Positions 20,455-60,468 of a stretch of 64,000 nucleotides of DNA are shown here, one piece after another. Numbering within the stretch: position 1 is the stretch's first letter; each line of letters begins with the position of its first letter. A program made the position numbers and the translations under genes. The DNA comes from an uncultured Candidatus Saccharibacteria bacterium (GTDB lineage Bacteria > Patescibacteriota > Minisyncoccia > UBA6257 > CAYRSR01): contig CAYRSR010000004.1 in the NCBI GenBank assembly GCA_964427275.1, positions 2,769-66,768 on the forward strand, read 5' to 3'. A model generated the notes under the pieces. That model was not told the DNA's origin and did no database searches. It worked only from the letters and a program-made list of their open reading frames with translations.

Positions 20455-20865
20455 ATGAGAGAGATAAAATTAACTATCAGGATACCAGAATTACTCGAAA
20501 TAAAGAAGTTTATAAAACTTCAAGTTATCAAGATTTTTAAAAGAACCAAAGAAGACATAATTAACAAGAAGGTATATACAGTTTTATTGATAGTCATTTT
20601 TGGCTTATTGTTTTGGAAATTTGCTTTTAAAGTAGCTATTTTATGGACAATCTTTTGGCTTTTTTTGTTCTATAACTGGGAAGATAGGGTTTTAGCTGGA
20701 ATTGCTTTGGTTCTTTTAGTTGGTTGCCCGATATTTTTGATTACTGGAAGAAAAGTTATTGCTGAACAAATAGCAATTTATGCTTATTACTTTATAGTGA
20801 TGACTGTAGCTTTGCAGATTGCAAAATTATGTGGCTTAGACAGAAGAATAAGATTGCATATTTAG
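20455..20865 (+). CDS. small membrane protein (3–4 TM)
   Basis: Hydrophobic 136-aa product between two large membrane proteins. The ORF-track start (20410) overlaps the upstream gene, so the start is taken at the ATG at 20455. Confidence 0.4.
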   Translation: MREIKLTIRIPELLEIKKFIKLQVIKIFKRTKEDIINKKVYTVLLIVIFGLLFWKFAFKVAILWTIFWLFLFYNWEDRVLAGIALVLLVGCPIFLITGRKVIAEQIAIYAYYFIVMTVALQIAKLCGLDRRIRLHI

Positions 20866-22487
20866 TTTATACTTTTTTAGCAATTTCTATTTTATTACCC
20901 CTGTTGAAACCAGGATATATTTTCGCTATGGATATGGTTTTTACTCCTCGTTTAAGATGGCCATCAGAATTTAATTTTCCCGGTGCTGTTTTATATTTGT
21001 TAAACTTTATTTTACCCAGTCAGATTATTCAAAAAATTCTTTTGTTTTTAGTCTTGTTTTTGGGTGGTGTCGGGATGCACAAATTAGTTCCAGTAAGGAA
21101 TGAGTTTGCTAAATACTTTGCCGGCATTTTTTATATTTTTAATCCATGGATTTATTCCAGGTTTTTGTATGGGCATTTATACTTATTAATTGCTTATGCT
21201 CTGATGCCATTTGTAGTTAAAACAATTTTTAAATTTTTGGACCAGATAAATTTCAAAATTGCCCTGAAGTTAAGTTTATGGCTGATTTTAATTGGTTTTA
21301 TCAGTCATCATTTTATTTTTATGGCAGTTTTATTTTTTGTGATTTCTGTTCTGGTTTATATTTTAAAGAACTTAAAAGATTTGCCTAAAATTTTAGAAAT
21401 TTTAAAATTTACAACTTTAATTGGATTAATTTTTTTAATTTTATCAAGCTGGTGGATTGCTCCTTATTTCAATAAAAGTTCTCCTCAAGGGCAATTTATT
21501 CAGCGGTCCATTGGTTTAAGTGACCTAAAGGCTTTTCAAACTGAACCGGATGCAAAGTATGGGGTATTACTAAATGTTTTGGCAATGTATGGCTTTTGGG
21601 GGGATAGGACCGAACAATATGTGGTTCAGAAGGATGTAGTTCGAGGCTGGTTTTGGTTATTTTTGATTATCCTAGGGCTGGTAATATTTGGCGCAATAAG
21701 TAAGTTAAAGGAATATAAGGCAATTGTTTTAATTCTAATTGGAATTATTTCCTTTGTTTTATCAGTTGGATTTGCTTATCCACCATTTAGGTTATTGATA
21801 AATTTTTTAAATCAGAATCTTTTTATTTTTAAGGGTTTTAGGGAGTCCCAGAAGTTCAGTGCTTTGTTAGTTTTAGTTTATGCTTATTTTGGAGCTTTGG
21901 GAATTAACAGCATAGTTGAAGGTTTAAAAGTTAGAAAGTTAGAAGGTTTAAAAGTTAGAAAGTTAGAAAGTTTAAAAATGTTTTTGTTAGCTTTTTTGAT
22001 TATTTTGCCAATTCTTTATTCTCCAATGATGTTTTGGGGCTTTAGAGGACAGCTTTCTGTTTCTGATTATCCATCAGATTGGTTTAGGGCAAATGAAATT
22101 TTAAATCAAGACCAAGATAATTTTAAGGTTTTGTTTTTCCCCTGGCATCAATATATGTTATTTAGTTTCACTAATGGTAAAGTAATTGCCAATCCGGCAC
22201 CAAATTTTTTTGATAAACCGGTTATTGCTGGTGATAATATGGAATTAGCAGAAATTTACACTCAGAGTAGAAGACCTATATCTAAATTTATTGAAAATGA
22301 AATTCTGGCTAAAAGAGAAATCATTAATAATTTAGGTCAGATACTTAAACCTCTGAGTATCAAGTATGTTATATTAGTTAAACAAGAAGATTGGCAAACC
22401 TATGGTTTTTTGGATTGGCAAACTGATTTAAAACAAATTTATGATTCTAAGCATTTAAAAATTTATCAAAATCAAAGCTGGAGATAA
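20829..22487 (+). CDS. polytopic membrane protein, GT-C-like glycosyltransferase candidate
   Basis: 552 aa with >10 TM helices and an in-frame tandem repeat EGLKVRKLEGLKVRKLESLK. Lies at the downstream end of the glycan cluster. Confidence 0.4.
   Translation: MWLRQKNKIAYLVYTFLAISILLPLLKPGYIFAMDMVFTPRLRWPSEFNFPGAVLYLLNFILPSQIIQKILLFLVLFLGGVGMHKLVPVRNEFAKYFAGIFYIFNPWIYSRFLYGHLYLLIAYALMPFVVKTIFKFLDQINFKIALKLSLWLILIGFISHHFIFMAVLFFVISVLVYILKNLKDLPKILEILKFTTLIGLIFLILSSWWIAPYFNKSSPQGQFIQRSIGLSDLKAFQTEPDAKYGVLLNVLAMYGFWGDRTEQYVVQKDVVRGWFWLFLIILGLVIFGAISKLKEYKAIVLILIGIISFVLSVGFAYPPFRLLINFLNQNLFIFKGFRESQKFSALLVLVYAYFGALGINSIVEGLKVRKLEGLKVRKLESLKMFLLAFLIILPILYSPMMFWGFRGQLSVSDYPSDWFRANEILNQDQDNFKVLFFPWHQYMLFSFTNGKVIANPAPNFFDKPVIAGDNMELAEIYTQSRRPISKFIENEILAKREIINNLGQILKPLSIKYVILVKQEDWQTYGFLDWQTDLKQIYDSKHLKIYQNQSWR
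21918..21977 (+). repeat. 24-bp tandem repeat (x2.5) inside CDS
   Basis: gaaggtttaaaagttagaaagtta repeated perfectly, then a partial copy. Confidence 0.8.
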
Positions 22488-23498: not shown

Positions 23499-25853
23499 AT
23501 GCTTAGAAAATTATCAGTTTTACTGATTGGAATTTCGCTGATTTTTAGTTTAGTCCCGGAAATTAATGCTCAAACAGCCGGAGAAACAAATGATACAAAT
23601 TTAATGCTGGATGAGGAAGTTGGCGCTGAAGACCTGGAAATATCCGAGCCAAAGATTTTACCGGATAGCAGGTTATATTTGTTTAAAAATTTTACCAGAG
23701 CAATTAGGAGGTTTTTTACTTTCAGTTCGTTGGCTAAGGCTGAGCTGAATTTAAGATATGCTTCAGAAAAATTGATTGAAGCCGAGAAGCTAGCCCGAAA
23801 AGGAAAGAAGGATTTAGCCGAAAAAGTTTTGGAAAGATATAGCGCCAACTTTGATAAAGCAAAAGAATTACTGGAAAAACAGAAAGATAATCCCAGAGCC
23901 AGAAAGATTCTGGAAAAATTAATTGACCGGGGAATCAAGCACCAGAAAGTTTTAAGTTTAATTCAGAAAAATCTTCCCTTAAATAAATCGGGGAAAATAA
24001 TAGGACTTAAAGCAAAAATAGCTAAACGATTGGGAGAATTTGGAGAAAAAGATCCCGAGAAGCTTAAAGAAATTATTGAGAAACAGAAAGGTTCAAAATT
24101 TAGAAACATTAAAAACATTCAGGTTTTACTAAGAGTAAAAGAACAAGTTCCAGAAGAAGCAAAAGATAAAATAGAAAGTGTAATTGAAAATCAATTAGAA
24201 AAACTTAAGTCCGATTTAGAAGAATTAGCTCCAGAAGAAAGAGAAAAAGTTAAATCCTATCTTCAGAATCTTTCTGGAAATGAAACCAGGTTACTTGAGG
24301 TAATTTCAAGAATAGAGAATTTAGATTTACCCGAGAAAATTCAGGAAAAACTTGGTGAAGCTAAAGAGAAAGTAATTGAAAGATTTGAAAATAGATTGAA
24401 AAAACTTGACGAACAAAATTTAGAAGATTTAAAACAAGAGTTATTTAAACCTTTGGAAGAAGCAGAATTATCTAAGCTGAAAGTAACTAAAGAGCTGATT
24501 AAAAAATTACCGGTTCAAAGAATTGAAAGAATTTTACCTGTTGAACAAAAAATTAAGCAAAAGTTTGCTAAAAAAATTGAACAGCTTTCAGCAGAAAAAA
24601 GAGAAGAATTTGTTCAAAGACTTGGTAGATATCAGGACGTTCAAGGACTAGAAATTTTAAAAGAAATTGAAGAATTTGTTCCTGAAGAAGGAAAAGATGT
24701 TTTGAAAAAAGCTAGAGAAAGAATAAAAACAAGAATCAAAAATGAACTGGAAGAAACTTCAGAATCTGACTTAGGTAGAAAAGTGCAACGAATATTTAAG
24801 AATCGTTTAGAAGGACTGGAAATAGTTGAAGAATTACCAATTTCTTCTCCGGTTAAAGAAAAGACAAAAAAGTTGTTAATTAAAGGAATAGAAAGAAAGC
24901 TTCAGAATGTAGAAGACCCCGAAGAGCTAAACCAGATTAAACAGAGATTGAAAGCTCGAAGAGCAGAGATAAAAAGCATCTCTCCCCAGTTTATCGAGAA
25001 ATTGGAAAGAGCCGAGCGTACGGCTGAAGGAAGAATAACCAAAGAATTGGTTGAGAAAAAGATTGAACAGGCTAAAAAAATGTTTTCAGAATTAAAAGGG
25101 AAGGTTGAGAAATTAACTGATGAACAGAAACAACTACTTCCTAGATATCTTTTCTTAAGTTTAGAATTGATTAAAAAAGAAATAAATCAATCAGTTTCAG
25201 CTTTAGAACAAGGAAAGGTGAAGGTTGCCTTTACTACAATTCAGTCAGTTTTAGGTAGGATAAGAAGTTGTTTTGCTATGCTATTAAGGAGTTTAACAGA
25301 AGTACCACTAGTCCCCGAAAAACCACAACAGCCAGGTAAAAAAATAGTATGTCCAGCTTTATATGACCCAGTTTGTGGGATAGATGGAATAACCTATCCA
25401 AATCGATGTGTAGCAGAAAGAATTCATCGAGTGAAGGTAGCTTATCGAGGAAAATGTAGAGAACAAAAGCTAACCTGCGAGCAAAAGTGTAAGATTTTAG
25501 GTTATCTTAAAGGAACTTGTAGAAGTTATCCTATTTATCCAAGAGCAAGAAAATGTTTGGAAAATGAGATTTATGTTGGTTCTGCTGTTGATTGTCAAGC
25601 GGATACTTCTAAGTTGGGAATTGGTTATGGATGCTGTTGTTTAATTAGAAAGCCTCAAAAGAAGGTTATTGAAGTTCCTAAGCCTGGTTTTATTTCACCC
25701 GAACCAGTTCCAGTAAAGGAATTAATACCATTTTTTGAAAGACCAGTTTCTGAACCAGTTGAAGGGGAAGTAAAATCAATTAAAAAGCCAACAATAAAAG
25801 CTGAACCGATTGAAAAGAAATTGGAACTAGAACCTGAATCTTTATTAGAGTAA
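23499..25853 (+). CDS. secreted coiled-coil protein with C-terminal Kazal-like domain and second Cys-rich module
   Basis: Signal peptide, ~560 aa of K/E-rich heptad coiled coil, then CPALYDPVCGIDGITYPNRC...GKC (Kazal signature PVCGxDGxTYxNxC), then an 8-Cys module and a Pro/Glu-rich tail. Confidence 0.6.
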   Translation: MLRKLSVLLIGISLIFSLVPEINAQTAGETNDTNLMLDEEVGAEDLEISEPKILPDSRLYLFKNFTRAIRRFFTFSSLAKAELNLRYASEKLIEAEKLARKGKKDLAEKVLERYSANFDKAKELLEKQKDNPRARKILEKLIDRGIKHQKVLSLIQKNLPLNKSGKIIGLKAKIAKRLGEFGEKDPEKLKEIIEKQKGSKFRNIKNIQVLLRVKEQVPEEAKDKIESVIENQLEKLKSDLEELAPEEREKVKSYLQNLSGNETRLLEVISRIENLDLPEKIQEKLGEAKEKVIERFENRLKKLDEQNLEDLKQELFKPLEEAELSKLKVTKELIKKLPVQRIERILPVEQKIKQKFAKKIEQLSAEKREEFVQRLGRYQDVQGLEILKEIEEFVPEEGKDVLKKARERIKTRIKNELEETSESDLGRKVQRIFKNRLEGLEIVEELPISSPVKEKTKKLLIKGIERKLQNVEDPEELNQIKQRLKARRAEIKSISPQFIEKLERAERTAEGRITKELVEKKIEQAKKMFSELKGKVEKLTDEQKQLLPRYLFLSLELIKKEINQSVSALEQGKVKVAFTTIQSVLGRIRSCFAMLLRSLTEVPLVPEKPQQPGKKIVCPALYDPVCGIDGITYPNRCVAERIHRVKVAYRGKCREQKLTCEQKCKILGYLKGTCRSYPIYPRARKCLENEIYVGSAVDCQADTSKLGIGYGCCCLIRKPQKKVIEVPKPGFISPEPVPVKELIPFFERPVSEPVEGEVKSIKKPTIKAEPIEKKLELEPESLLE

Positions 25854-36991: not shown

Positions 36992-37441
36992 ATGGCTGAA
37001 ATTAATCAAATTAAAAAACTAAGAGAGGAAACTGGAGCTGGAGTAATGTCCTGCAAGAAAGCAATTGACCAGGCTAAAGGCGACTATCAAAAAGCTAAAC
37101 AACTAATCAAAAAATGGGGACTTCTGAAGGCCAAGGAAAAATCTGAGGGTTCAGCTAATGTTGGATATATTACCAGTTATGTTCACCAAGATAGTAGAAT
37201 TGGGGTGTTAGTGGAGCTATGGTGTCAGACTGATTTTGTGGCTCGTAATTCTATGTTTCAAAAGTTGGCTCATGAAATAGCATTGCAAATTGCAGCAATG
37301 AATCCCAAGGATCTAGATGAACTACTAGAACAACAATACATTAGGGACCCAAGTAAGACCATCGAAGAACTAATTAATGAAAACATTGCAGTGCTGAAGG
37401 AAAAAATCCGAATAGGAAGATTCTGTAGGTATGAAGTTTAA
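36992..37441 (+). CDS. tsf: elongation factor Ts (short form)
   Basis: MAEINQIKKLREETGAGVMSCKKAI is the EF-Ts UBA-like N-terminus; 149 aa. Confidence 0.8.
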   Translation: MAEINQIKKLREETGAGVMSCKKAIDQAKGDYQKAKQLIKKWGLLKAKEKSEGSANVGYITSYVHQDSRIGVLVELWCQTDFVARNSMFQKLAHEIALQIAAMNPKDLDELLEQQYIRDPSKTIEELINENIAVLKEKIRIGRFCRYEV

Positions 37442-37455
37442 CTTAAAGTGAATTT

Positions 37456-37740
37456 ATGCATGGCTATCCTTATCCGTTTATCTTAAGAATGATTGCTTAT
37501 TTTTCTCTAATAGTACTGATTTACATTTTTGTTAGAGCAGCAGTACGGAAGAAAGAAGAAATTAACTTACCAAAGAAAGAAATTAAATCCCTCGGTAGCT
37601 TTGAGATATTAGAAAAAATGGATAAGGTAGCGGATTTCTGGATTGAAAAAATACTTAGAAGAGCCAGATTGATTTTGATGAAGATAAATAATAAAATAAC
37701 TCTGAAGCTTCAAGAATTTAAAACAAAAGACAGACATTGA
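37456..37740 (+). CDS. hypothetical small membrane protein
   Basis: 94 aa with one N-terminal TM helix. Confidence 0.35.
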   Translation: MHGYPYPFILRMIAYFSLIVLIYIFVRAAVRKKEEINLPKKEIKSLGSFEILEKMDKVADFWIEKILRRARLILMKINNKITLKLQEFKTKDRH

Positions 37741-37749
37741 AGTTAATCC

Positions 37750-37834
37750 GGGCAGGTGGCAGAGTGGACAAATGCATTGGTCTGTAAAACCAACGCCTTT
37801 AATGGCTTCGTAGGTTCGAATCCTACCCTGCCCA
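37750..37834 (+). tRNA. tRNA-Tyr (GTA), type II with long variable arm
   Basis: Acceptor GGGCAGG/CCTGCCC, anticodon loop CTGTAAA, long variable arm, T-loop GGTTCGAATCC. Confidence 0.85.
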
Positions 37835-37884
37835 CAAAAGAACTTTAAAGTTGTAAAGGGCGATTATTGTTATTAAATTTTAAA

Positions 37885-38073
37885 ATGTACAAAGTAAATA
37901 AAGAAAAGTGCGTTGGATGTCAGTCTTGTGTTCAGGCTTGTCCTGGAGCAATTAAGATAGGAGAAGATGGTAAAGCGGAAATAATTGACCAGGAGAAGTT
38001 GGAGAAGTGTGGTGGAGAAAGTGTTTGTCCACTAGGAGCAATTGAGAAAACTGAATCTCAAGAAAATGATTAG
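37885..38073 (+). CDS. 4Fe-4S ferredoxin
   Basis: CVGCQSCVQACP plus a second ...C...CPLGAI cluster motif; ~62 aa. Confidence 0.75.
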   Translation: MYKVNKEKCVGCQSCVQACPGAIKIGEDGKAEIIDQEKLEKCGGESVCPLGAIEKTESQEND

Positions 38074-38422
38074 ATTGACTGATTTGAACTTTGAAAAGGA
38101 AATTCAAAGTACAAATAAGCCAGTTTTAGTTGATTTTTGGGCAACTTGGTGCTATCCTTGTAGTGTTCTTAGCCCAATTTTAGAGAAATTAGCTAAGGAG
38201 TATCAGGATGAATTGATATTGGCTAAAGTGAATATTGCTGAAGCTCCAATGATTTCTGAAAAGCTTGGAATTGACCAGATTCCAACTGTAATTTTGTTTA
38301 AGAATGGAAAACCGATTAGTGGGTTTATTGGAGTAAGGCCTGAGCCAGTAATAAGAGAGTGGTTAAGAAAGATGTTGAGAGAATCTAAAAATAATTATGC
38401 CGAGAGTAAAAACTCAAACTAA
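38066..38422 (+). CDS. trxA: thioredoxin
   Basis: VDFWATWCYPC active site (WCxPC), ~118 aa. Start refined to the ATG at 38066. Confidence 0.85.
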   Translation: MIRLTDLNFEKEIQSTNKPVLVDFWATWCYPCSVLSPILEKLAKEYQDELILAKVNIAEAPMISEKLGIDQIPTVILFKNGKPISGFIGVRPEPVIREWLRKMLRESKNNYAESKNSN

Positions 38423-38687
38423 AAAGAATGAGTTGAAAGAAATTATTGAATGGCTTGAGAACTATGCGAAGAAGAATGGCTTTAGATTAAATCCTAATAG
38501 AGCAATAGTAGAAAAATTAGCAAGAGGCCTTTTAATCAATCAGAAAAAATATGGAGCTAGATATTGTCCTTGTAGGAGAATTACCGGAAATTTAAAGGAA
38601 GATCGATTTAAAATTTGTCCCTGTAAATGGCATCGAGAAGAAATTAAGAAATATGGTCATTGTTTTTGTGGATTGTTTTTTAAATAG
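38397..38687 (+). CDS. ferredoxin-thioredoxin reductase catalytic subunit-like protein
   Basis: Three Cys pairs in FTR-type spacing: YCPCR...ICPCKWH...GHCFCGLF (CPC / CPC / CxC). Confidence 0.65.
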   Translation: MPRVKTQTKKNELKEIIEWLENYAKKNGFRLNPNRAIVEKLARGLLINQKKYGARYCPCRRITGNLKEDRFKICPCKWHREEIKKYGHCFCGLFFK

Positions 38688-38701
38688 TTCTTTGAAATTT
38701 T

Positions 38702-38777
38702 GCCGGTATAGCTCAGTGGCTAGAGCAACGCTCTTGTAAAGCGTAGGTCGGGGGTTCAAATCCCTCTACCGGCTCCA
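38702..38777 (+). tRNA. tRNA-Thr (TGT)
   Basis: Acceptor GCCGGTA/TACCGGC, anticodon loop CTTGTAA, CCA encoded. Confidence 0.85.
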
Positions 38778-38800
38778 GAACAGCAATTCAGTAAATTATT

Positions 38801-38874
38801 GCCTGAGTAGCTCAGTTGGTTAGAGCACGTCTCTGGTAATGACGAGGTCGTGAGTTCGAATCTCACCTCAGGCT
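38801..38874 (+). tRNA. tRNA-Thr (GGT)
   Basis: Acceptor GCCTGAG/CTCAGGC, anticodon loop CTGGTAA, T-loop GTTCGAATC. Confidence 0.8.
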
Positions 38875-38885
38875 CATAGTGTGGA

Positions 38886-39030
38886 ATAAATACAAAAATG
38901 AAAAACATTACAATTTACAATTTTCAATTTCTAATTTTCAATCAATTATCAATGAATTAATTTTCAAATTAATTAAACTAATTGAAAATTCAATGAAAAT
39001 TGAAAATTGATAATTGAAAATTGATTATTT
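38886..39030. repeat. AT-only palindromic repeat element (caattttcaatttt family), copy A
   Basis: Two imperfectly inverted ~45-bp arms: cacaatttacaattttcaatttctaattttcaatcaattatcaatga, and aattgaaaattcaatgaaaattgaaaattgataattgaaaattgatta. Near-identical copy at 42020–42175. Confidence 0.7.
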
Positions 39031-39033
39031 ATT

Positions 39034-39198
39034 ATGGCTCAATACAAAACAAAACAAACTATGGTTAAGTTGAGATGTTCAGAATGCAAGCGAATTAATT
39101 ATTATACTAGAAGGAATAAGAAAACTACCGAAAAGTTACAATTGAGAAAGTATTGTAAATGGTGTAGAAAGCACACTTTACATAAAGAAACCAAGTGA
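39034..39198 (+). CDS. rpmG: 50S ribosomal protein L33
   Basis: 54-aa ORF absent from the ORF track: [54 protein letters not shown] (L33 Zn-ribbon, CxxC...CxxC). Confidence 0.8.
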
Positions 39199-39214
39199 TA
39201 TAAGTATATATTGA

Positions 39215-39288
39215 GATTAGGGGCGTGGTGAAGTGGCATCGCGGAAGTCTCCAAAACTTCAGTCGGGGGTTCGATTCCTCCCGCCCCT
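39215..39288 (+). tRNA. tRNA-Trp (CCA)
   Basis: Acceptor AGGGGCG/CGCCCCT, anticodon loop CTCCAAA, T-loop GGTTCGATTCC, CCA encoded. Confidence 0.8.
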
Positions 39289-39325
39289 GCCAGGTAGAAA
39301 TCTCCTCTAAAGTTTATTAGAATTT

Positions 39326-40312
39326 TTATAACTTTAAGCCGATTTTAGCTTTTATTTGGTTTAGTCTTTTAGTGGCTATTTTTCTGGCTTGAATAGAACC
39401 AGTTTTGAATATTTTTAATACTTTTTGATTGGTAATTTTTTTTCGATTTTGTCGATAAGGTTTAAACGAATTGTTAATTAGTTTAGATAACTCTAACTTG
39501 AATTCAGCATATCCTTTTCCTTTAAATTCCTCTTCCAGACTGCTAATCGGTTTTCCAGATAATGCTGAGTATATGGTTAATAAGTTACTGATACCTGGCT
39601 TGGTTTTAGAATCGTATTTAATTTCTCTTCCTGAATCGGTAACTGCTGATTTAATTTTTCGATAAATTTCTGATTTAGAGTCCTTTAAAAATAAGCATCC
39701 TTCCGCTTGAGATTTAGACATCTTTGAACTTGGATCAGTTAAGCTCAAAATTTTTGGAGCAGTAGTTAAGACTGGTTCTGGTAGATTAAATGTTTTTCCA
39801 AATTCGGAATTGAATTTTTGGGCAATATCTCTAACAAATTCCAGGTGTTGTAATTGATCTTTTCCTACTGGAACATATTTGGCATTATATAGTAAAATGT
39901 CGGCGGCCATTAAGCTGGGATAAGCAAACAGGCCAGCATTTACCTGAACTGACTCTTTAGCCTTTTGCTTAAATTGAGTCATTCTGGTTAATTGTCCAAA
40001 TGGGGACAAACATTGAATGATCCAACCAAGTTCTAGATGTTCGGGGACTAATGATTGAATGAATAAAATAGATTTTTTCGGATTAAGTCCAACAGCCAAA
40101 TAATCTTTTCCTAATTCAATAATTCGGTTAGTTAGTTTTTTAGTTTCAGTTCCCTTAAAATTAGTGGTAATTGCATGGTAATCAGCAATGAAGAATAGAC
40201 AGTTGTATTTTTCTGAATTTTGAAGTTCCACAAAGTTTTTTAAAGCCCCCAGGTAATTTCCCAGGTGTAGAGCTTCGGTTGGTCTTATTCCTGAAATTAG
40301 AATAGGCTTCAT
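39326..40312 (-). CDS. trpS: tryptophanyl-tRNA synthetase
   Basis: Class I HIGH motif (TEALHLGNYLG) and KMSKS; 328 aa. Confidence 0.9.
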   Translation of the reverse strand: MKPILISGIRPTEALHLGNYLGALKNFVELQNSEKYNCLFFIADYHAITTNFKGTETKKLTNRIIELGKDYLAVGLNPKKSILFIQSLVPEHLELGWIIQCLSPFGQLTRMTQFKQKAKESVQVNAGLFAYPSLMAADILLYNAKYVPVGKDQLQHLEFVRDIAQKFNSEFGKTFNLPEPVLTTAPKILSLTDPSSKMSKSQAEGCLFLKDSKSEIYRKIKSAVTDSGREIKYDSKTKPGISNLLTIYSALSGKPISSLEEEFKGKGYAEFKLELSKLINNSFKPYRQNRKKITNQKVLKIFKTGSIQARKIATKRLNQIKAKIGLKL

Positions 40313-58542: not shown

Positions 58543-59469
58543 ATGAACATCTACGATTTAATAATTATTGGAGGAGGTCCAGCTGGAATTACTGCTGGCA
58601 TTTATGCTGCTAGGCAAAAGCTCAATACATTGTTGATTACCAAAAGTTTTGGTGGCCAGGTAAACAGAAAAGCAGTAGCCATTGAGAATTATCCTGGTTT
58701 TGAAAAAATCTCCGGGAGTGATTTGATAACAAAGTTTGAACAGCAGTTAAGAAAAACTGGAATAGAAATTAGACGAGACGCAGTGGTAAAGGTTAGTTGG
58801 CTGAAGCAAGAGTTTTTAGTAGAAACCAAGACCAAAAATCAATTTAAATCTAAAGCGGTAATTGTTGCTTCTGGTGCAGATCCCAGACCACTGGAAGTTC
58901 CTGGAGAAAAAGAATTCATTGGAAAAGGGGTAAGCTATTGTACTGCCTGTGATGCTCCTTTATATCGAGATAAAACTGTGGCAGTAATTGGTGGGGGGAA
59001 TTCTGGATTTGAAGCAGCAATTGCATTAGCTAATTGGGCTAAGCACATTTATATCCTAGAATTTCTATCTCAGGTTTCAGCTGATGAAATTAATCAAGAG
59101 TTAGTTCAAAAAACTGGAAAAGTGGATGTAATTACTAATGCCAAAGTGGTTGAAATAAAAGGTGATGAATTTGTAAATTCAATTGTTTACCAAGACCGTG
59201 AAACCGGACAATCTAATAGCCTTTCTTTGGATGGAGTATTTATTGAAATTGGTTCTCAGCCAGCTACTTCATTTGTAAAGGACCTGGTAGATTTTAACTC
59301 TAGGGATGAAATTAAAATCGATCCATTTACTAACCAGGCTAAAACTCCAGGATTGTTTGCTGCTGGAGATGTAACTGAAGTTAAATATAAACAAATTGTA
59401 ATTGCCTGCAGTGAAGGTGCAAAAGCTGCTCTTAGCGCTGATAAATATATAAAAAAGTTACTTAGTTAA
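58543..59469 (+). CDS. trxB: thioredoxin reductase-like flavoprotein lacking canonical NADPH 2'-phosphate motif
   Basis: DLIIIGGGPAGITAG FAD site, CTACDA redox CxxC and a second VIGGGNSG Rossmann. The HRRDxFRA box is replaced by YILEFLSQVSAD. Confidence 0.7.
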   Translation: MNIYDLIIIGGGPAGITAGIYAARQKLNTLLITKSFGGQVNRKAVAIENYPGFEKISGSDLITKFEQQLRKTGIEIRRDAVVKVSWLKQEFLVETKTKNQFKSKAVIVASGADPRPLEVPGEKEFIGKGVSYCTACDAPLYRDKTVAVIGGGNSGFEAAIALANWAKHIYILEFLSQVSADEINQELVQKTGKVDVITNAKVVEIKGDEFVNSIVYQDRETGQSNSLSLDGVFIEIGSQPATSFVKDLVDFNSRDEIKIDPFTNQAKTPGLFAAGDVTEVKYKQIVIACSEGAKAALSADKYIKKLLS

Positions 59470-59499
59470 AGGTCGAAAAAGTTGAATTGTCAAAATATT

Positions 59500-59766
59500 A
59501 TGAAAGTTTTAAAATTTGGAGCTAGCTGGTGTGAAGGTTGCAAGGTGATGAAACCAAGGTGGGAAGAAATTGAAAAAGAATATCCCTGGCTGGAAACTAA
59601 ATTCATTAGTATTGATGAACACCCAGAAGCAATGAAAGAATACAAAATTATGAGTCTACCAACTGCTATATTTTTGGATAAACAAAATCAGGAAATAGCC
59701 AGGTTTTCAGGAGAAGTAGAAAAAGAAGTATTGATAAAAGCAATTTTAGAAAATAAGGACAAATAA
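59500..59766 (+). CDS. thioredoxin-like protein (CxxC = WCEGC)
   Basis: LKFGASWCEGCKVM; ~88 aa; immediately downstream of the trxB-like gene. Confidence 0.6.
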   Translation: MKVLKFGASWCEGCKVMKPRWEEIEKEYPWLETKFISIDEHPEAMKEYKIMSLPTAIFLDKQNQEIARFSGEVEKEVLIKAILENKDK

Positions 59767-59778
59767 AATCAACTTCAG

Positions 59779-60468
59779 ATGAACAATTCTAAAAATGATT
59801 ATATTAGATTGTCTCCTTCTACTTTAAACCTGTTTTTAGAATGCAAAAGGTGTTTCTGGCTTCAGGTAAATAAAGGAATTCATCGACCCACAAGCCCTTT
59901 TTCATCTTTACCTGGTGGAATGGATGGGGTAATTAAGAAATATTTTGATAAATACCGATTATTAAATACTTTACCTCCTGAAATCAAAGGAAAAGTTGTT
60001 GGTAGCTTGATGACTGAACTAGAATTACTTAATCAGTGGAGAAACTGGTATACTGGACTAAAGTATATTGATTCAACTAGAAAAGGAATTCTAATTGGAG
60101 CTTTAGATGATTGTCTCAAAGATGGCAAATACTATATTCCAGTTGATTATAAAACCAGAGGTTACCCGCCTTCTCAAAATAGTTCAGAAGAATATTATCA
60201 ACATCAATTAAATTGTTATACTTTCTTATTGAAGCAAAATGGTTATCCGGTAAAGAATTTTGCTTATCTAATTTATTATTATCCCAGGCAAGTTAAAGAG
60301 AATGGAATAGTTGAATTTAATGTGGAGCCAATAAGAATCAAGACCTACCCCGAGCAGGCTAAAAAAGTTTTTGAACAAGCTCTTGATTTATTGAAAGGTG
60401 ACTTGCCAGAAAAACACTCCAAATGCTCTTATTGCAATTGGGCTGGAGATGTTTCTGGATTTGAATAA
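59779..60468 (+). CDS. PD-(D/E)xK nuclease-like protein (Cas4/RecB-like) with 2+2 Cys
   Basis: N-terminal CKRC and C-terminal CSYC; central ILIGALDD...IPVDYKT (D...D-x-K core). Confidence 0.4.
   Translation: MNNSKNDYIRLSPSTLNLFLECKRCFWLQVNKGIHRPTSPFSSLPGGMDGVIKKYFDKYRLLNTLPPEIKGKVVGSLMTELELLNQWRNWYTGLKYIDSTRKGILIGALDDCLKDGKYYIPVDYKTRGYPPSQNSSEEYYQHQLNCYTFLLKQNGYPVKNFAYLIYYYPRQVKENGIVEFNVEPIRIKTYPEQAKKVFEQALDLLKGDLPEKHSKCSYCNWAGDVSGFE

Follow-up and report, generated by a model that had tools for sequence, protein, structure and literature searches.

How Patescibacteria, with their minimal redox metabolism, reduce thiols and supply themselves with deoxynucleotides is an unclear question. It bears on three small genes of an uncultured Candidatus Saccharibacteria bacterium, which encode a ferredoxin, a thioredoxin (Trx), and a 96-amino-acid (aa) protein resembling the catalytic chain (FTRc) of ferredoxin:thioredoxin reductase (FTR). 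These genes lie on a stretch of 64,000 nucleotides (nt) that we analyzed over its full length and refer to here as the 64-kb window (GenBank assembly GCA_964427275.1, contig CAYRSR010000004.1, positions 2,769 to 66,768 of the forward strand). A preliminary description, drawn up from the letters of the window, had read the triad as a complete electron path running from ferredoxin through FTR to thioredoxin. Our analysis favors, at a probability of roughly 75%, the view that the three genes constitute a self-contained, pyridine-nucleotide-independent thioredoxin system of the type found in anaerobes, with a ferredoxin disulfide reductase (FDR) at its center.

Three overlapping genes form a compact locus

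Coordinates of open reading frames (ORFs) are those of the window, and tRNAs were called with ARAGORN. The ferredoxin ORF (62 aa; ATG, 37885..38073, +; 68 aa if translation began at an alternative TTG at 37867) overlaps the thioredoxin ORF (118 aa; ATG, 38066..38422, +) by 8 nt (ATGATTAG). The thioredoxin ORF in turn shares an A-rich overlap of 26 nt with the FTRc-like, FDR-type ORF (96 aa; ATG, 38397..38687, +), which is read in a different frame, namely +1 relative to that of the thioredoxin. The two overlaps suggest co-translation of the three products. A codirectional tRNA-Tyr (GTA; 37750..37835, +) lies directly 5' and marks that boundary of the locus, having no functional part in the redox module, and two tRNA-Thr genes (TGT and GGT; 38702-38777 and 38801-38875, both +) close it at the 3' side. 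ARAGORN, the ORF calls, and Pfam matches to all three products (Fer4, PF00085, and PF02943) thereby confirmed the earlier reading of three overlapping or adjacent small genes following tRNA-Tyr.

All three proteins are found, identical, in public assemblies, and contigs assembled independently from ENA and JGI samples carry the three genes split in the same way. Because the split is identical in these independent assemblies, the arrangement is not an assembly artefact, and the separation between thioredoxin and reductase genes cannot be put down to errors of assembly or sequencing. In a scan of positions 37300-39400, no terminator-like sites were detected, including between tRNA-Tyr and the module, and promoter-like sites were not clearly above those of shuffled sequences. 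The surrounding segment (37750-39292) is a tRNA/ribosomal-protein cluster in which the triad is embedded, comprising tRNA-Tyr, the triad, the two tRNA-Thr genes, rpmG (L33), and a tRNA-Trp (39219-39292; ARAGORN). The triad may be transcribed together with the neighboring tRNAs.

The 96-aa protein belongs to the FDR branch of the FTRc superfamily

The cysteines of the 96-aa protein are arranged as C57-P-C59, C74-P-C76, and C89-F-C91, i.e., CPC-x14-CPC-x12-CFC. FeThRed_B (PF02943) was its sole Pfam match (E = 1.4e-23; 83.4 bits against a cutoff of 22); the match stops at profile position 86 of 106, so that positions 87-106, the ~20 C-terminal residues of the plant-type extension, are unmatched. 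A sequence search of the Protein Data Bank (PDB) returned 7PWE (67 bits over 85 residues, 39% identity) and 4TPU (66 bits) as the best hits, both ungapped, and plant and cyanobacterial FTR catalytic chains (1DJ7, 7BZK) at 22-32 bits, with gaps required. An AlphaFold2 model built with 32 homologs (pLDDT 88.7) was aligned by Foldseek to 7PWE with a TM score of 0.85 (root mean square deviation [rmsd], 1.0 Å), to 4TPU with 0.79, and to FTR catalytic chains (1DJ7, 2PU9, 7C3F) with 0.70 (rmsd, ~3 Å), and below E = 1 it retrieved FDR and FTRc structures exclusively. Since FDRs are closest in both sequence and fold, share the Cys spacing, and have a residue other than His in the CxC motif, we place the 96-aa protein within the FTRc superfamily, in its anaerobe-type FDR branch. 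The likeness to the FTR catalytic subunit noticed in the preliminary description is therefore real, in the FeThRed_B profile as well as in the predicted structure, but it is not a likeness to the phototroph-type enzyme.

We rejected a phototroph-type FTR on five grounds: (i) CFC in place of CHC; (ii) the Cys spacing; (iii) the missing C-terminal extension; (iv) the lack of a variable subunit (FTRv) gene in the window; and (v) a predicted donor of the [4Fe-4S] type. As to FTRv, phmmer (--max) with the Synechocystis protein as query, its sequence having been checked against 1DJ7_B, found none among the six-frame ORFs of the 64-kb window (best E, 0.72), in line with a published statement that only oxygenic phototrophs have FTRv (PMC9025218). 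The protein consists of the core alone, with no rubredoxin or glutaredoxin domain in cis; such cis-fused accessory redox domains vary among known FDRs and so are probably not strictly defining.

The six cysteines are invariant across the 32 homologs. By homology with Synechocystis FTRc (the 1DJ7/2PU9 work), we take C57, C74, C76, and C89 to be the cluster ligands and C59-C91 to be the redox-active disulfide; the 96-aa protein would accordingly carry a [4Fe-4S] cluster beside that disulfide. The residue between the last two cysteines varies in 82 relatives (F in 31, L in 25, Y in 11, and H in 11), and His88, which precedes C89-F-C91, is mostly conserved in the homologs.

The ferredoxin and the thioredoxin

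The ferredoxin has cysteines at positions 9, 12, 15, 19, 42, and 48 (residues 9-20 read CVGCQSCVQACP), giving the pattern CxxCxxCxxxCP...C...CP within ~60 aa. Fer4, Fer4_15, Fer4_13, and other Fer4 families of Pfam matched it at ~30 bits, above their cutoffs. Its best full-length relative of solved structure is the Thermotoga maritima ferredoxin (1ROF/1VJW, 35.7 bits), followed by that of Pyrococcus (2Z8Q aligned) and then by those of Desulfovibrio africanus and D. gigas; [4Fe-4S] ferredoxin of the P. furiosus type was also matched. All six cysteines and the N terminus M-x-K-V-N-K-E-K-C are kept in 22 ferredoxin homologs from related loci. From this pattern, we predict a single-cluster [4Fe-4S] ferredoxin, in which the ligands would be C9, C12, and C15 of CxxCxxC together with C48 of the Cys-Pro pair, and C19 and C42 would form an extra pair. 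In thermophile ferredoxins, the extra Cys pair is a disulfide. Two of the ferredoxin homologs (L012:4096-4437 and L036:4222-4581) end in a Gly/Arg-rich C-terminal tail resembling DUF5320, which elsewhere is a separate neighboring gene.

The thioredoxin carries the active site W28-C29-Y30-P31-C32, as against the usual WCGPC, and matches PF00085 (97 bits) as well as the TIGR01068 equivalog model (110.1 bits; cutoff, 96.8). A fused thioredoxin homolog from a relative scored ~100-110 bits against E. coli and ancestral thioredoxin structures, and the motif in related loci is WCxPC, with x freely variable. The Fer4, PF00085, and TIGR01068 matches thus agree with the earlier identification of a 4Fe-4S ferredoxin and a WCYPC thioredoxin, the cluster type being predicted from the Cys pattern.

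Thioredoxin and reductase are physically linked in related genomes

Relatives of the 96-aa protein were sought at three depths. A word-indexed search yielded 80 homologs of 63-167 aa (most of them 80-126 aa) with 48-72% identity, including one fusion of Trx with FeThRed_B; some are named "ferredoxin:thioredoxin reductase" by NCBI, in Nealsonbacteria, Wolfebacteria, Pacearchaeota, and Nanohalarchaeota. Scanning a single genome for each species produced 284 relatives, the best 80 of which are mostly from Patescibacteria and DPANN archaea. Exhaustive HMMER searching of 1.84 billion representatives retrieved 705 clusters with E <= 1e-3, 255 of them with E <= 1e-10; lengths ran from 68 to 648 aa. 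Hence the superfamily is of modest size but varied in architecture. The module is common in Patescibacteria and DPANN archaea, where some members are already annotated automatically. The preliminary description had considered the path to be one of oxygenic phototrophs and a few anaerobes, and its occurrence in a heterotrophic, reduced genome to be out of the ordinary. The description of the host is fair, but among such genomes the path is not unusual. Our literature search found no paper joining "ferredoxin thioredoxin reductase" with Patescibacteria and no description of the module there.

To describe gene linkage, we searched the stop-to-stop ORFs of 82 loci outside the window, mostly from Patescibacteria and DPANN archaea, with the three window proteins. 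Thioredoxin and reductase were found in one reading frame, with the thioredoxin N-terminal, in 50/82 loci, and as separate but adjacent genes in 26/82, so that the two are physically linked in 93% of loci; they were unlinked, or one was absent, in the remaining 6, of which 5 are archaeal. A ferredoxin of the window type stands directly upstream of the thioredoxin in 23/82 loci, and when present there it is always on the same strand and immediately 5' of the thioredoxin, at gaps of -10 to 120 nt.

In a rough neighbor-joining tree of the reductase domain, which has low resolution given a domain of 85 residues, the window protein nests among fused forms, and at least 13 switches between the fused and split states are needed. 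The nearest relatives by FDR-domain identity (L010, L020, L009, L011, and L008) are all fused. Because the window protein nests among fused forms, the most fitting reading of the gene pair, as far as the tree can indicate, is that an ancestral Trx-FDR fusion was split, the split state being derived. Identities of 50-60% across domains of life hint at inter-domain transfer of the module. The archaeal homologs (L039, L048, L056, L059, L065, L067, L071, L075, L080, and L087), which come from DPANN lineages and one bin labelled Methanocellales, are never fused to a thioredoxin and often are not adjacent to one; most homologs from Patescibacteria are fused.

Neighboring genes point to deoxynucleotide synthesis as a probable client

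ORFs within 3.5 kb of the module were clustered, and the cluster representatives were annotated with Pfam. A class III ribonucleotide reductase (RNR), NrdD with an ATP-cone, lies directly downstream of the module in 11/82 loci, and a radical-SAM activase is present in 11. The order ferredoxin, Trx~FDR, NrdD, NrdG occurs in ~10 loci, with the RNR genes at the position that is held in the window by the two tRNA-Thr genes. Ferredoxin accompanies the module in 10 of the 11 NrdD-linked loci versus 14 of the 71 others (Fisher p = 8e-6, without phylogenetic correction).

The NrdD proteins of these cassettes carry SMCCRL in 9/9 full-length cases. This double-Cys motif corresponds to the SCCR of T. maritima NrdD, an enzyme that does not work with formate but depends on a protein factor of >10 kDa; the formate-type NrdD of phage T4 has MGCR (PMC4493059). 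In PDB similarity searches with the cassette proteins, 8P23 (a class III RNR) and T. maritima NrdD scored alike. NrdD2 has been reported to use thioredoxin and NrdD3 to use NrdH (PMC9176816), and in Methanosarcina FDRs reduce Trx-like proteins, with an FDR feeding electrons to the class III RNR of M. barkeri (PMC6262447). Because the most frequent linked client in the relatives is an SMCCRL class III RNR with its activase, the supply of electrons for deoxynucleoside triphosphate synthesis is, by analogy, the most likely main job of the module. Two cassette NrdD ORFs (L026:5351-8716 and L038:5341-8454) are 1038-1122 aa long versus the usual ~710-730 aa, which suggests a large insertion, possibly an intein.

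We hold more tentatively, and on balance doubt, the broader proposition that in ultra-small anaerobes of both domains (Patescibacteria and DPANN archaea) a dedicated single-cluster ferredoxin and Trx-FDR, the latter mostly a single polypeptide but split in the lineage of the window, are the main reductant supply for a Trx-dependent class III RNR, as a module that moved between domains and was repeatedly fused and split. If it were true, DNA-precursor synthesis would be wired directly to fermentative low-potential electrons, without a pyridine nucleotide. A recurrent ferredoxin-fed thioredoxin system, often wired to an oxygen-sensitive class III RNR, offers a testable bypass of NADPH, and the module would mark its hosts as dependent on a low-potential electron source.

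Besides the class III RNR, a second recurrent neighbor in the relatives is a membrane protein (13 loci) with an N-terminal CPHC Trx-like part and DsbD/CcdA-like helices, recognized by reading the sequence, as it had no Pfam match. A flavin mononucleotide (FMN) protein with a glutamate-synthase domain (PF01645) lies near the module in 15 or, by another method, 16 loci; of the 24 loci with a ferredoxin anywhere, 11 have this gene directly 5' of the ferredoxin (L010, L012, L013, L015, L017, L020, L021, L023, L045, L047, and L060). This protein is a stand-alone form of ~400 aa (382 bits) with a C-terminal Cys cluster, encoded ~1.2 kb upstream of the module, and may be another user of the same ferredoxin. 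Other recurrent neighbors are MinD/ParA-Fer4 ATPases, CDF transporters with a NifX-like domain, DUF5320, DUF134, family-4 uracil-DNA glycosylase (UDG4), small rubrerythrin/EncFtn-like proteins, and MnmA. Within this set, DUF5320, the CDF-NifX transporter, and the MinD/ParA-Fer4 ATPase, sometimes with DUF134, flank the module in L013, L017-L020, L022, L024, L030, L043, L045, and others; they form a metal- or Fe-S-related island that is absent from the window. By homology search, the window holds no homolog of the glutamate synthase (GltS)-like protein, MinD-Fer4, CDF-NifX, or UDG4, and no further ferredoxin gene was found in it.

A proposed electron path and its alternatives

Homology, fold, Cys conservation, gene fusion, and synteny are the observations behind the path that we propose. 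Ferredoxin, reduced elsewhere in metabolism, would hand two successive single electrons to the 96-aa enzyme, the cluster of which would cleave the C59-C91 disulfide, whereupon the C29-C32 disulfide of the WCYPC thioredoxin would be reduced. No variable subunit would take part, and the reduced thioredoxin would serve disulfide-dependent clients. The passage of electrons from ferredoxin through the reductase to thioredoxin envisaged in the preliminary description is thus plausible, and is reinforced by the fusions in 50/82 loci and the upstream ferredoxins in 23/82.

Several observations weigh against this path. The 96-aa protein has Phe at the position of the canonical His of the CHC motif, and in Synechocystis FTR this His reportedly promotes catalysis. 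Ferredoxin adjacency is seen in just 28% of related loci, and the GltS-like FMN neighbor in 11 loci may mean that the ferredoxin is a shared carrier rather than a dedicated donor. Neither NrdD, NrdG, a peroxiredoxin, nor another obvious thioredoxin client was found in the 64-kb window, and no known ferredoxin-reducing enzyme was present among the window proteins that were inspected or annotated, although no search was aimed at PFOR, hydrogenase, or Rnf. In addition, a probably NADH-linked thioredoxin reductase (TrxR) homolog encoded elsewhere in the window (see below) might also reduce the WCYPC thioredoxin.

The point about a shared carrier can be taken further, namely that the FDR does reduce thioredoxin, and that the adjoining ferredoxin is a general low-potential carrier for the GltS-like enzyme or NrdG, its adjacency being incidental. 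NrdG activases also need a low-potential one-electron donor. We judge this unlikely. The ferredoxin is indeed upstream in just 23/82 loci, and in 11 loci it stands between the PF01645 protein and the Trx-FDR gene; when present, however, it is immediately 5' of the thioredoxin and on the same strand, and in the window, where neither a GltS-like gene nor NrdG is nearby, it overlaps the thioredoxin by 8 nt. Moreover, the solved FDR and FTR enzymes use a ferredoxin donor (PDB titles; PMC6262447).

There is even less to commend the idea that the FDR acts on another substrate, be it a small-molecule disulfide or another protein, or serves as a redox sensor, its adjacency to the thioredoxin gene reflecting shared regulation. 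Such a role would find a parallel in the Methanosarcina FDRs, which reduce atypical Trx-like proteins and not the canonical thioredoxins of their hosts (PMC6262447), and the WCYPC site of the window protein is itself non-canonical. However, fusion to thioredoxin in 50/82 loci and adjacency in 26 more are hard to explain without direct interaction, and the window thioredoxin scores above the equivalog cutoff of TIGR01068.

A further alternative concerns the split, which would be either a disabling frameshift that left decaying halves, or a site at which the fusion is still made by programmed +1 frameshifting in the 26-nt overlap. The five nearest relatives by FDR-domain identity are all fused, the FDR frame is +1 to that of the thioredoxin, and the overlap is A-rich, all as this alternative would have it. 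Nevertheless, we consider it very improbable: both ORFs are full-length with all catalytic cysteines and an ATG each, the identical split occurs in independent assemblies, thioredoxin and reductase are separate genes in 26 other loci, the 13 or more switches show both states to be evidently viable, and no known +1 frameshift signal was identified. Finally, a generic zinc ribbon or other metal motif, which the preliminary description had itself raised as a competing explanation of the Cys pattern, has nothing in its favor beyond small size and Cys richness and is rejected, because the sole Pfam match (PF02943, 83 bits) and all fold matches below E = 1 are to the FTRc/FDR family.

A probable second, NADH-linked thiol system

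A low-molecular-weight TrxR homolog (308 aa, 58543..59469, +; active site CTAC), which is not part of the triad, is followed directly downstream by a gene for a small Trx-like protein (94 aa, 59482..59766, +; WCEGC). The homolog had been described as lacking its NADPH motif, and had been taken as a sign of ferredoxin-driven rather than NADPH-driven thiol control. HRRxxxR is indeed absent, but GGGNSG is kept, and the homolog has a Leu-Glu-Phe (ILEF) signature at the site where canonical NTRs carry HRR. In phmmer searches of PDB sequences, SsTrxB3 and AhpF scored 223-228 bits and the clostridial ferredoxin-dependent flavin thioredoxin reductase (FFTR) ~110 bits; among NCBIfam models, the C-terminal part of AhpF reached 324 bits and TRX_reduct 323 bits, below its cutoff of 343. 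With the NAD-domain (bab) segment as query, AhpF scored 70 bits (LLEF; near-identical segment), the Thermoplasma acidophilum thioredoxin reductase (TR; IGGGNSG...IIEY) was next best at 49 bits, and FFTR was weakest at 26 bits. A Glu ending the second Rossmann strand is a classical NADH signature.

Thermoplasma TR is NADH-dependent (PMC6262447), and loss of HRRxxxR accompanies the use of NADH, F420, or ferredoxin (PMC6262447, PMC10880999). As this loss is also seen with NADH or F420 use, it cannot alone indicate ferredoxin. Enzymes of the FFTR type are marked by the loss of GxGxxA/G as well as HRRxxxR, the two NAD(P)H motifs, and by clustering with clostridial FFTRs (PMC10880999); we rejected FFTR identity for the window homolog, in which GGGNSG is kept and for which FFTR scores are far below those of AhpF and SsTrxB3. 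Because the homolog is AhpF/Thermoplasma-like and remote from FFTR, it gives no case for exclusively ferredoxin-driven control, and the inference formerly drawn from it does not stand.

The WCEGC protein scores 54 bits against TIGR01068, below the cutoff. The window has no Trx-like ORF besides this one and the WCYPC thioredoxin, and the WCEGC protein probably pairs with the TrxR homolog. The two proteins probably make up a second, NADH-linked thiol system, so that two thiol systems would coexist in this organism, to judge from their sequences.

Comparison with known systems

The closest counterpart in both sequence and fold is the Desulfotalea psychrophila fusion of glutaredoxin and ferredoxin disulfide reductase (7PWE). 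Both proteins have CPC-x14-CPC-x12-CxC with an aromatic residue in place of His (Tyr in 7PWE, Phe in the window), and in both cases the reductase domain is physically coupled to a thiol-disulfide carrier with thioredoxin fold. In 7PWE the carrier is fused in cis, as a glutaredoxin-like N-terminal domain of ~84 aa, whereas that of the window is a full-length thioredoxin encoded by a separate, overlapping gene; the relatives from Patescibacteria are mostly thioredoxin fusions. Literature searches on 7PWE, and on Desulfotalea with glutaredoxin and ferredoxin, returned nothing.

The Methanosarcina acetivorans FDR (4TPU) likewise consists of an FTRc-like domain that works without a variable subunit, with CYC where the window protein has CFC, but it carries a C-terminal rubredoxin domain that the latter lacks. 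In the FDR-NrdH-NrdD system of M. barkeri, ferredoxin-dependent reduction of Trx/NrdH feeds a class III RNR, much as would the Fd-Trx~FDR-NrdD-NrdG cassettes of the relatives (Fd, ferredoxin; PMC6262447, PMC9176816). In the methanogen system, an atypical thioredoxin or a glutaredoxin-like NrdH serves as partner, in contrast to the thioredoxin of canonical length in the window; the hosts are methanogenic archaea and not Patescibacteria, and the window has no NrdD nearby.

With cyanobacterial and chloroplast FTRs (1DJ7, 2PU9, 7C3F), the window protein shares the fold, the six-Cys constellation, the logic of ferredoxin, reductase, and thioredoxin in series, and presumably the [4Fe-4S]-assisted disulfide chemistry. 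The two differ in sequence (22-24% identity, with gaps) and in spacing (x16/x8 with CHC in Synechocystis; x14/x12 with CFC in the window), and the plant-type enzyme works with FTRv and a [2Fe-2S] plant-type ferredoxin, whereas the window has no FTRv homolog and a ferredoxin predicted to be of the [4Fe-4S] type. The clostridial FFTR (6GNA/6GNC) is another route by which anaerobes pass electrons from ferredoxin to thioredoxin, via a flavoenzyme unrelated to the predicted 96-aa Fe-S protein; it is the family to which the earlier reading of the TrxR homolog implicitly pointed.

With the parts and the logic known from Methanosarcina and Desulfotalea, the window adds a correctly annotated split example and not a new principle. 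The family as a whole offers the smallest natural FDR core (84-96 aa), natural Trx-FDR fusions, and F/L/Y/H variation at the position of the plant-FTR His. The comparative results most worth following are the predominance of fused Trx-FDR forms, the Fd-Trx~FDR-NrdDG cassettes, and the variation at this "His" position.

Other features of the window

The window has a G+C content of ~0.32. Among its products are an EF-Ts of 149 aa, a 23S-IVS protein, numerous glycosyltransferases, a GH65 phosphorylase, iPGM, and DeoC. The nearest named relatives of its LepA share 50-56% identity and are all from Patescibacteria (Portnoy-, Nealson-, Pace-, and Parcubacteria and Minisyncoccales). The EF-Ts (36992-37441) is a truncated form, matching the first 76 of the 204 EF_TS profile positions.

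A 784-aa, Lys/Glu-rich, probably secreted protein (23499-25853) has an N-terminal DUF5667 and, at residues 614-653, a Kazal-type serine-protease-inhibitor domain (PF00050; 35 bits, cutoff 21). As such domains occur mainly in eukaryotes, its presence in a bacterium is unusual. A stand-alone PD-(D/E)XK/Cas4-like nuclease (59779-60468; PF12705, 56 bits) with a C-terminal Cys cluster was also found; the window proteins inspected included no products of CRISPR-Cas genes. Reading of the translation of ORF 20829-22487 revealed a membrane protein with a short tandem peptide repeat (LKVRKLEGLKVRKLESLK) encoded at 21800-22000.

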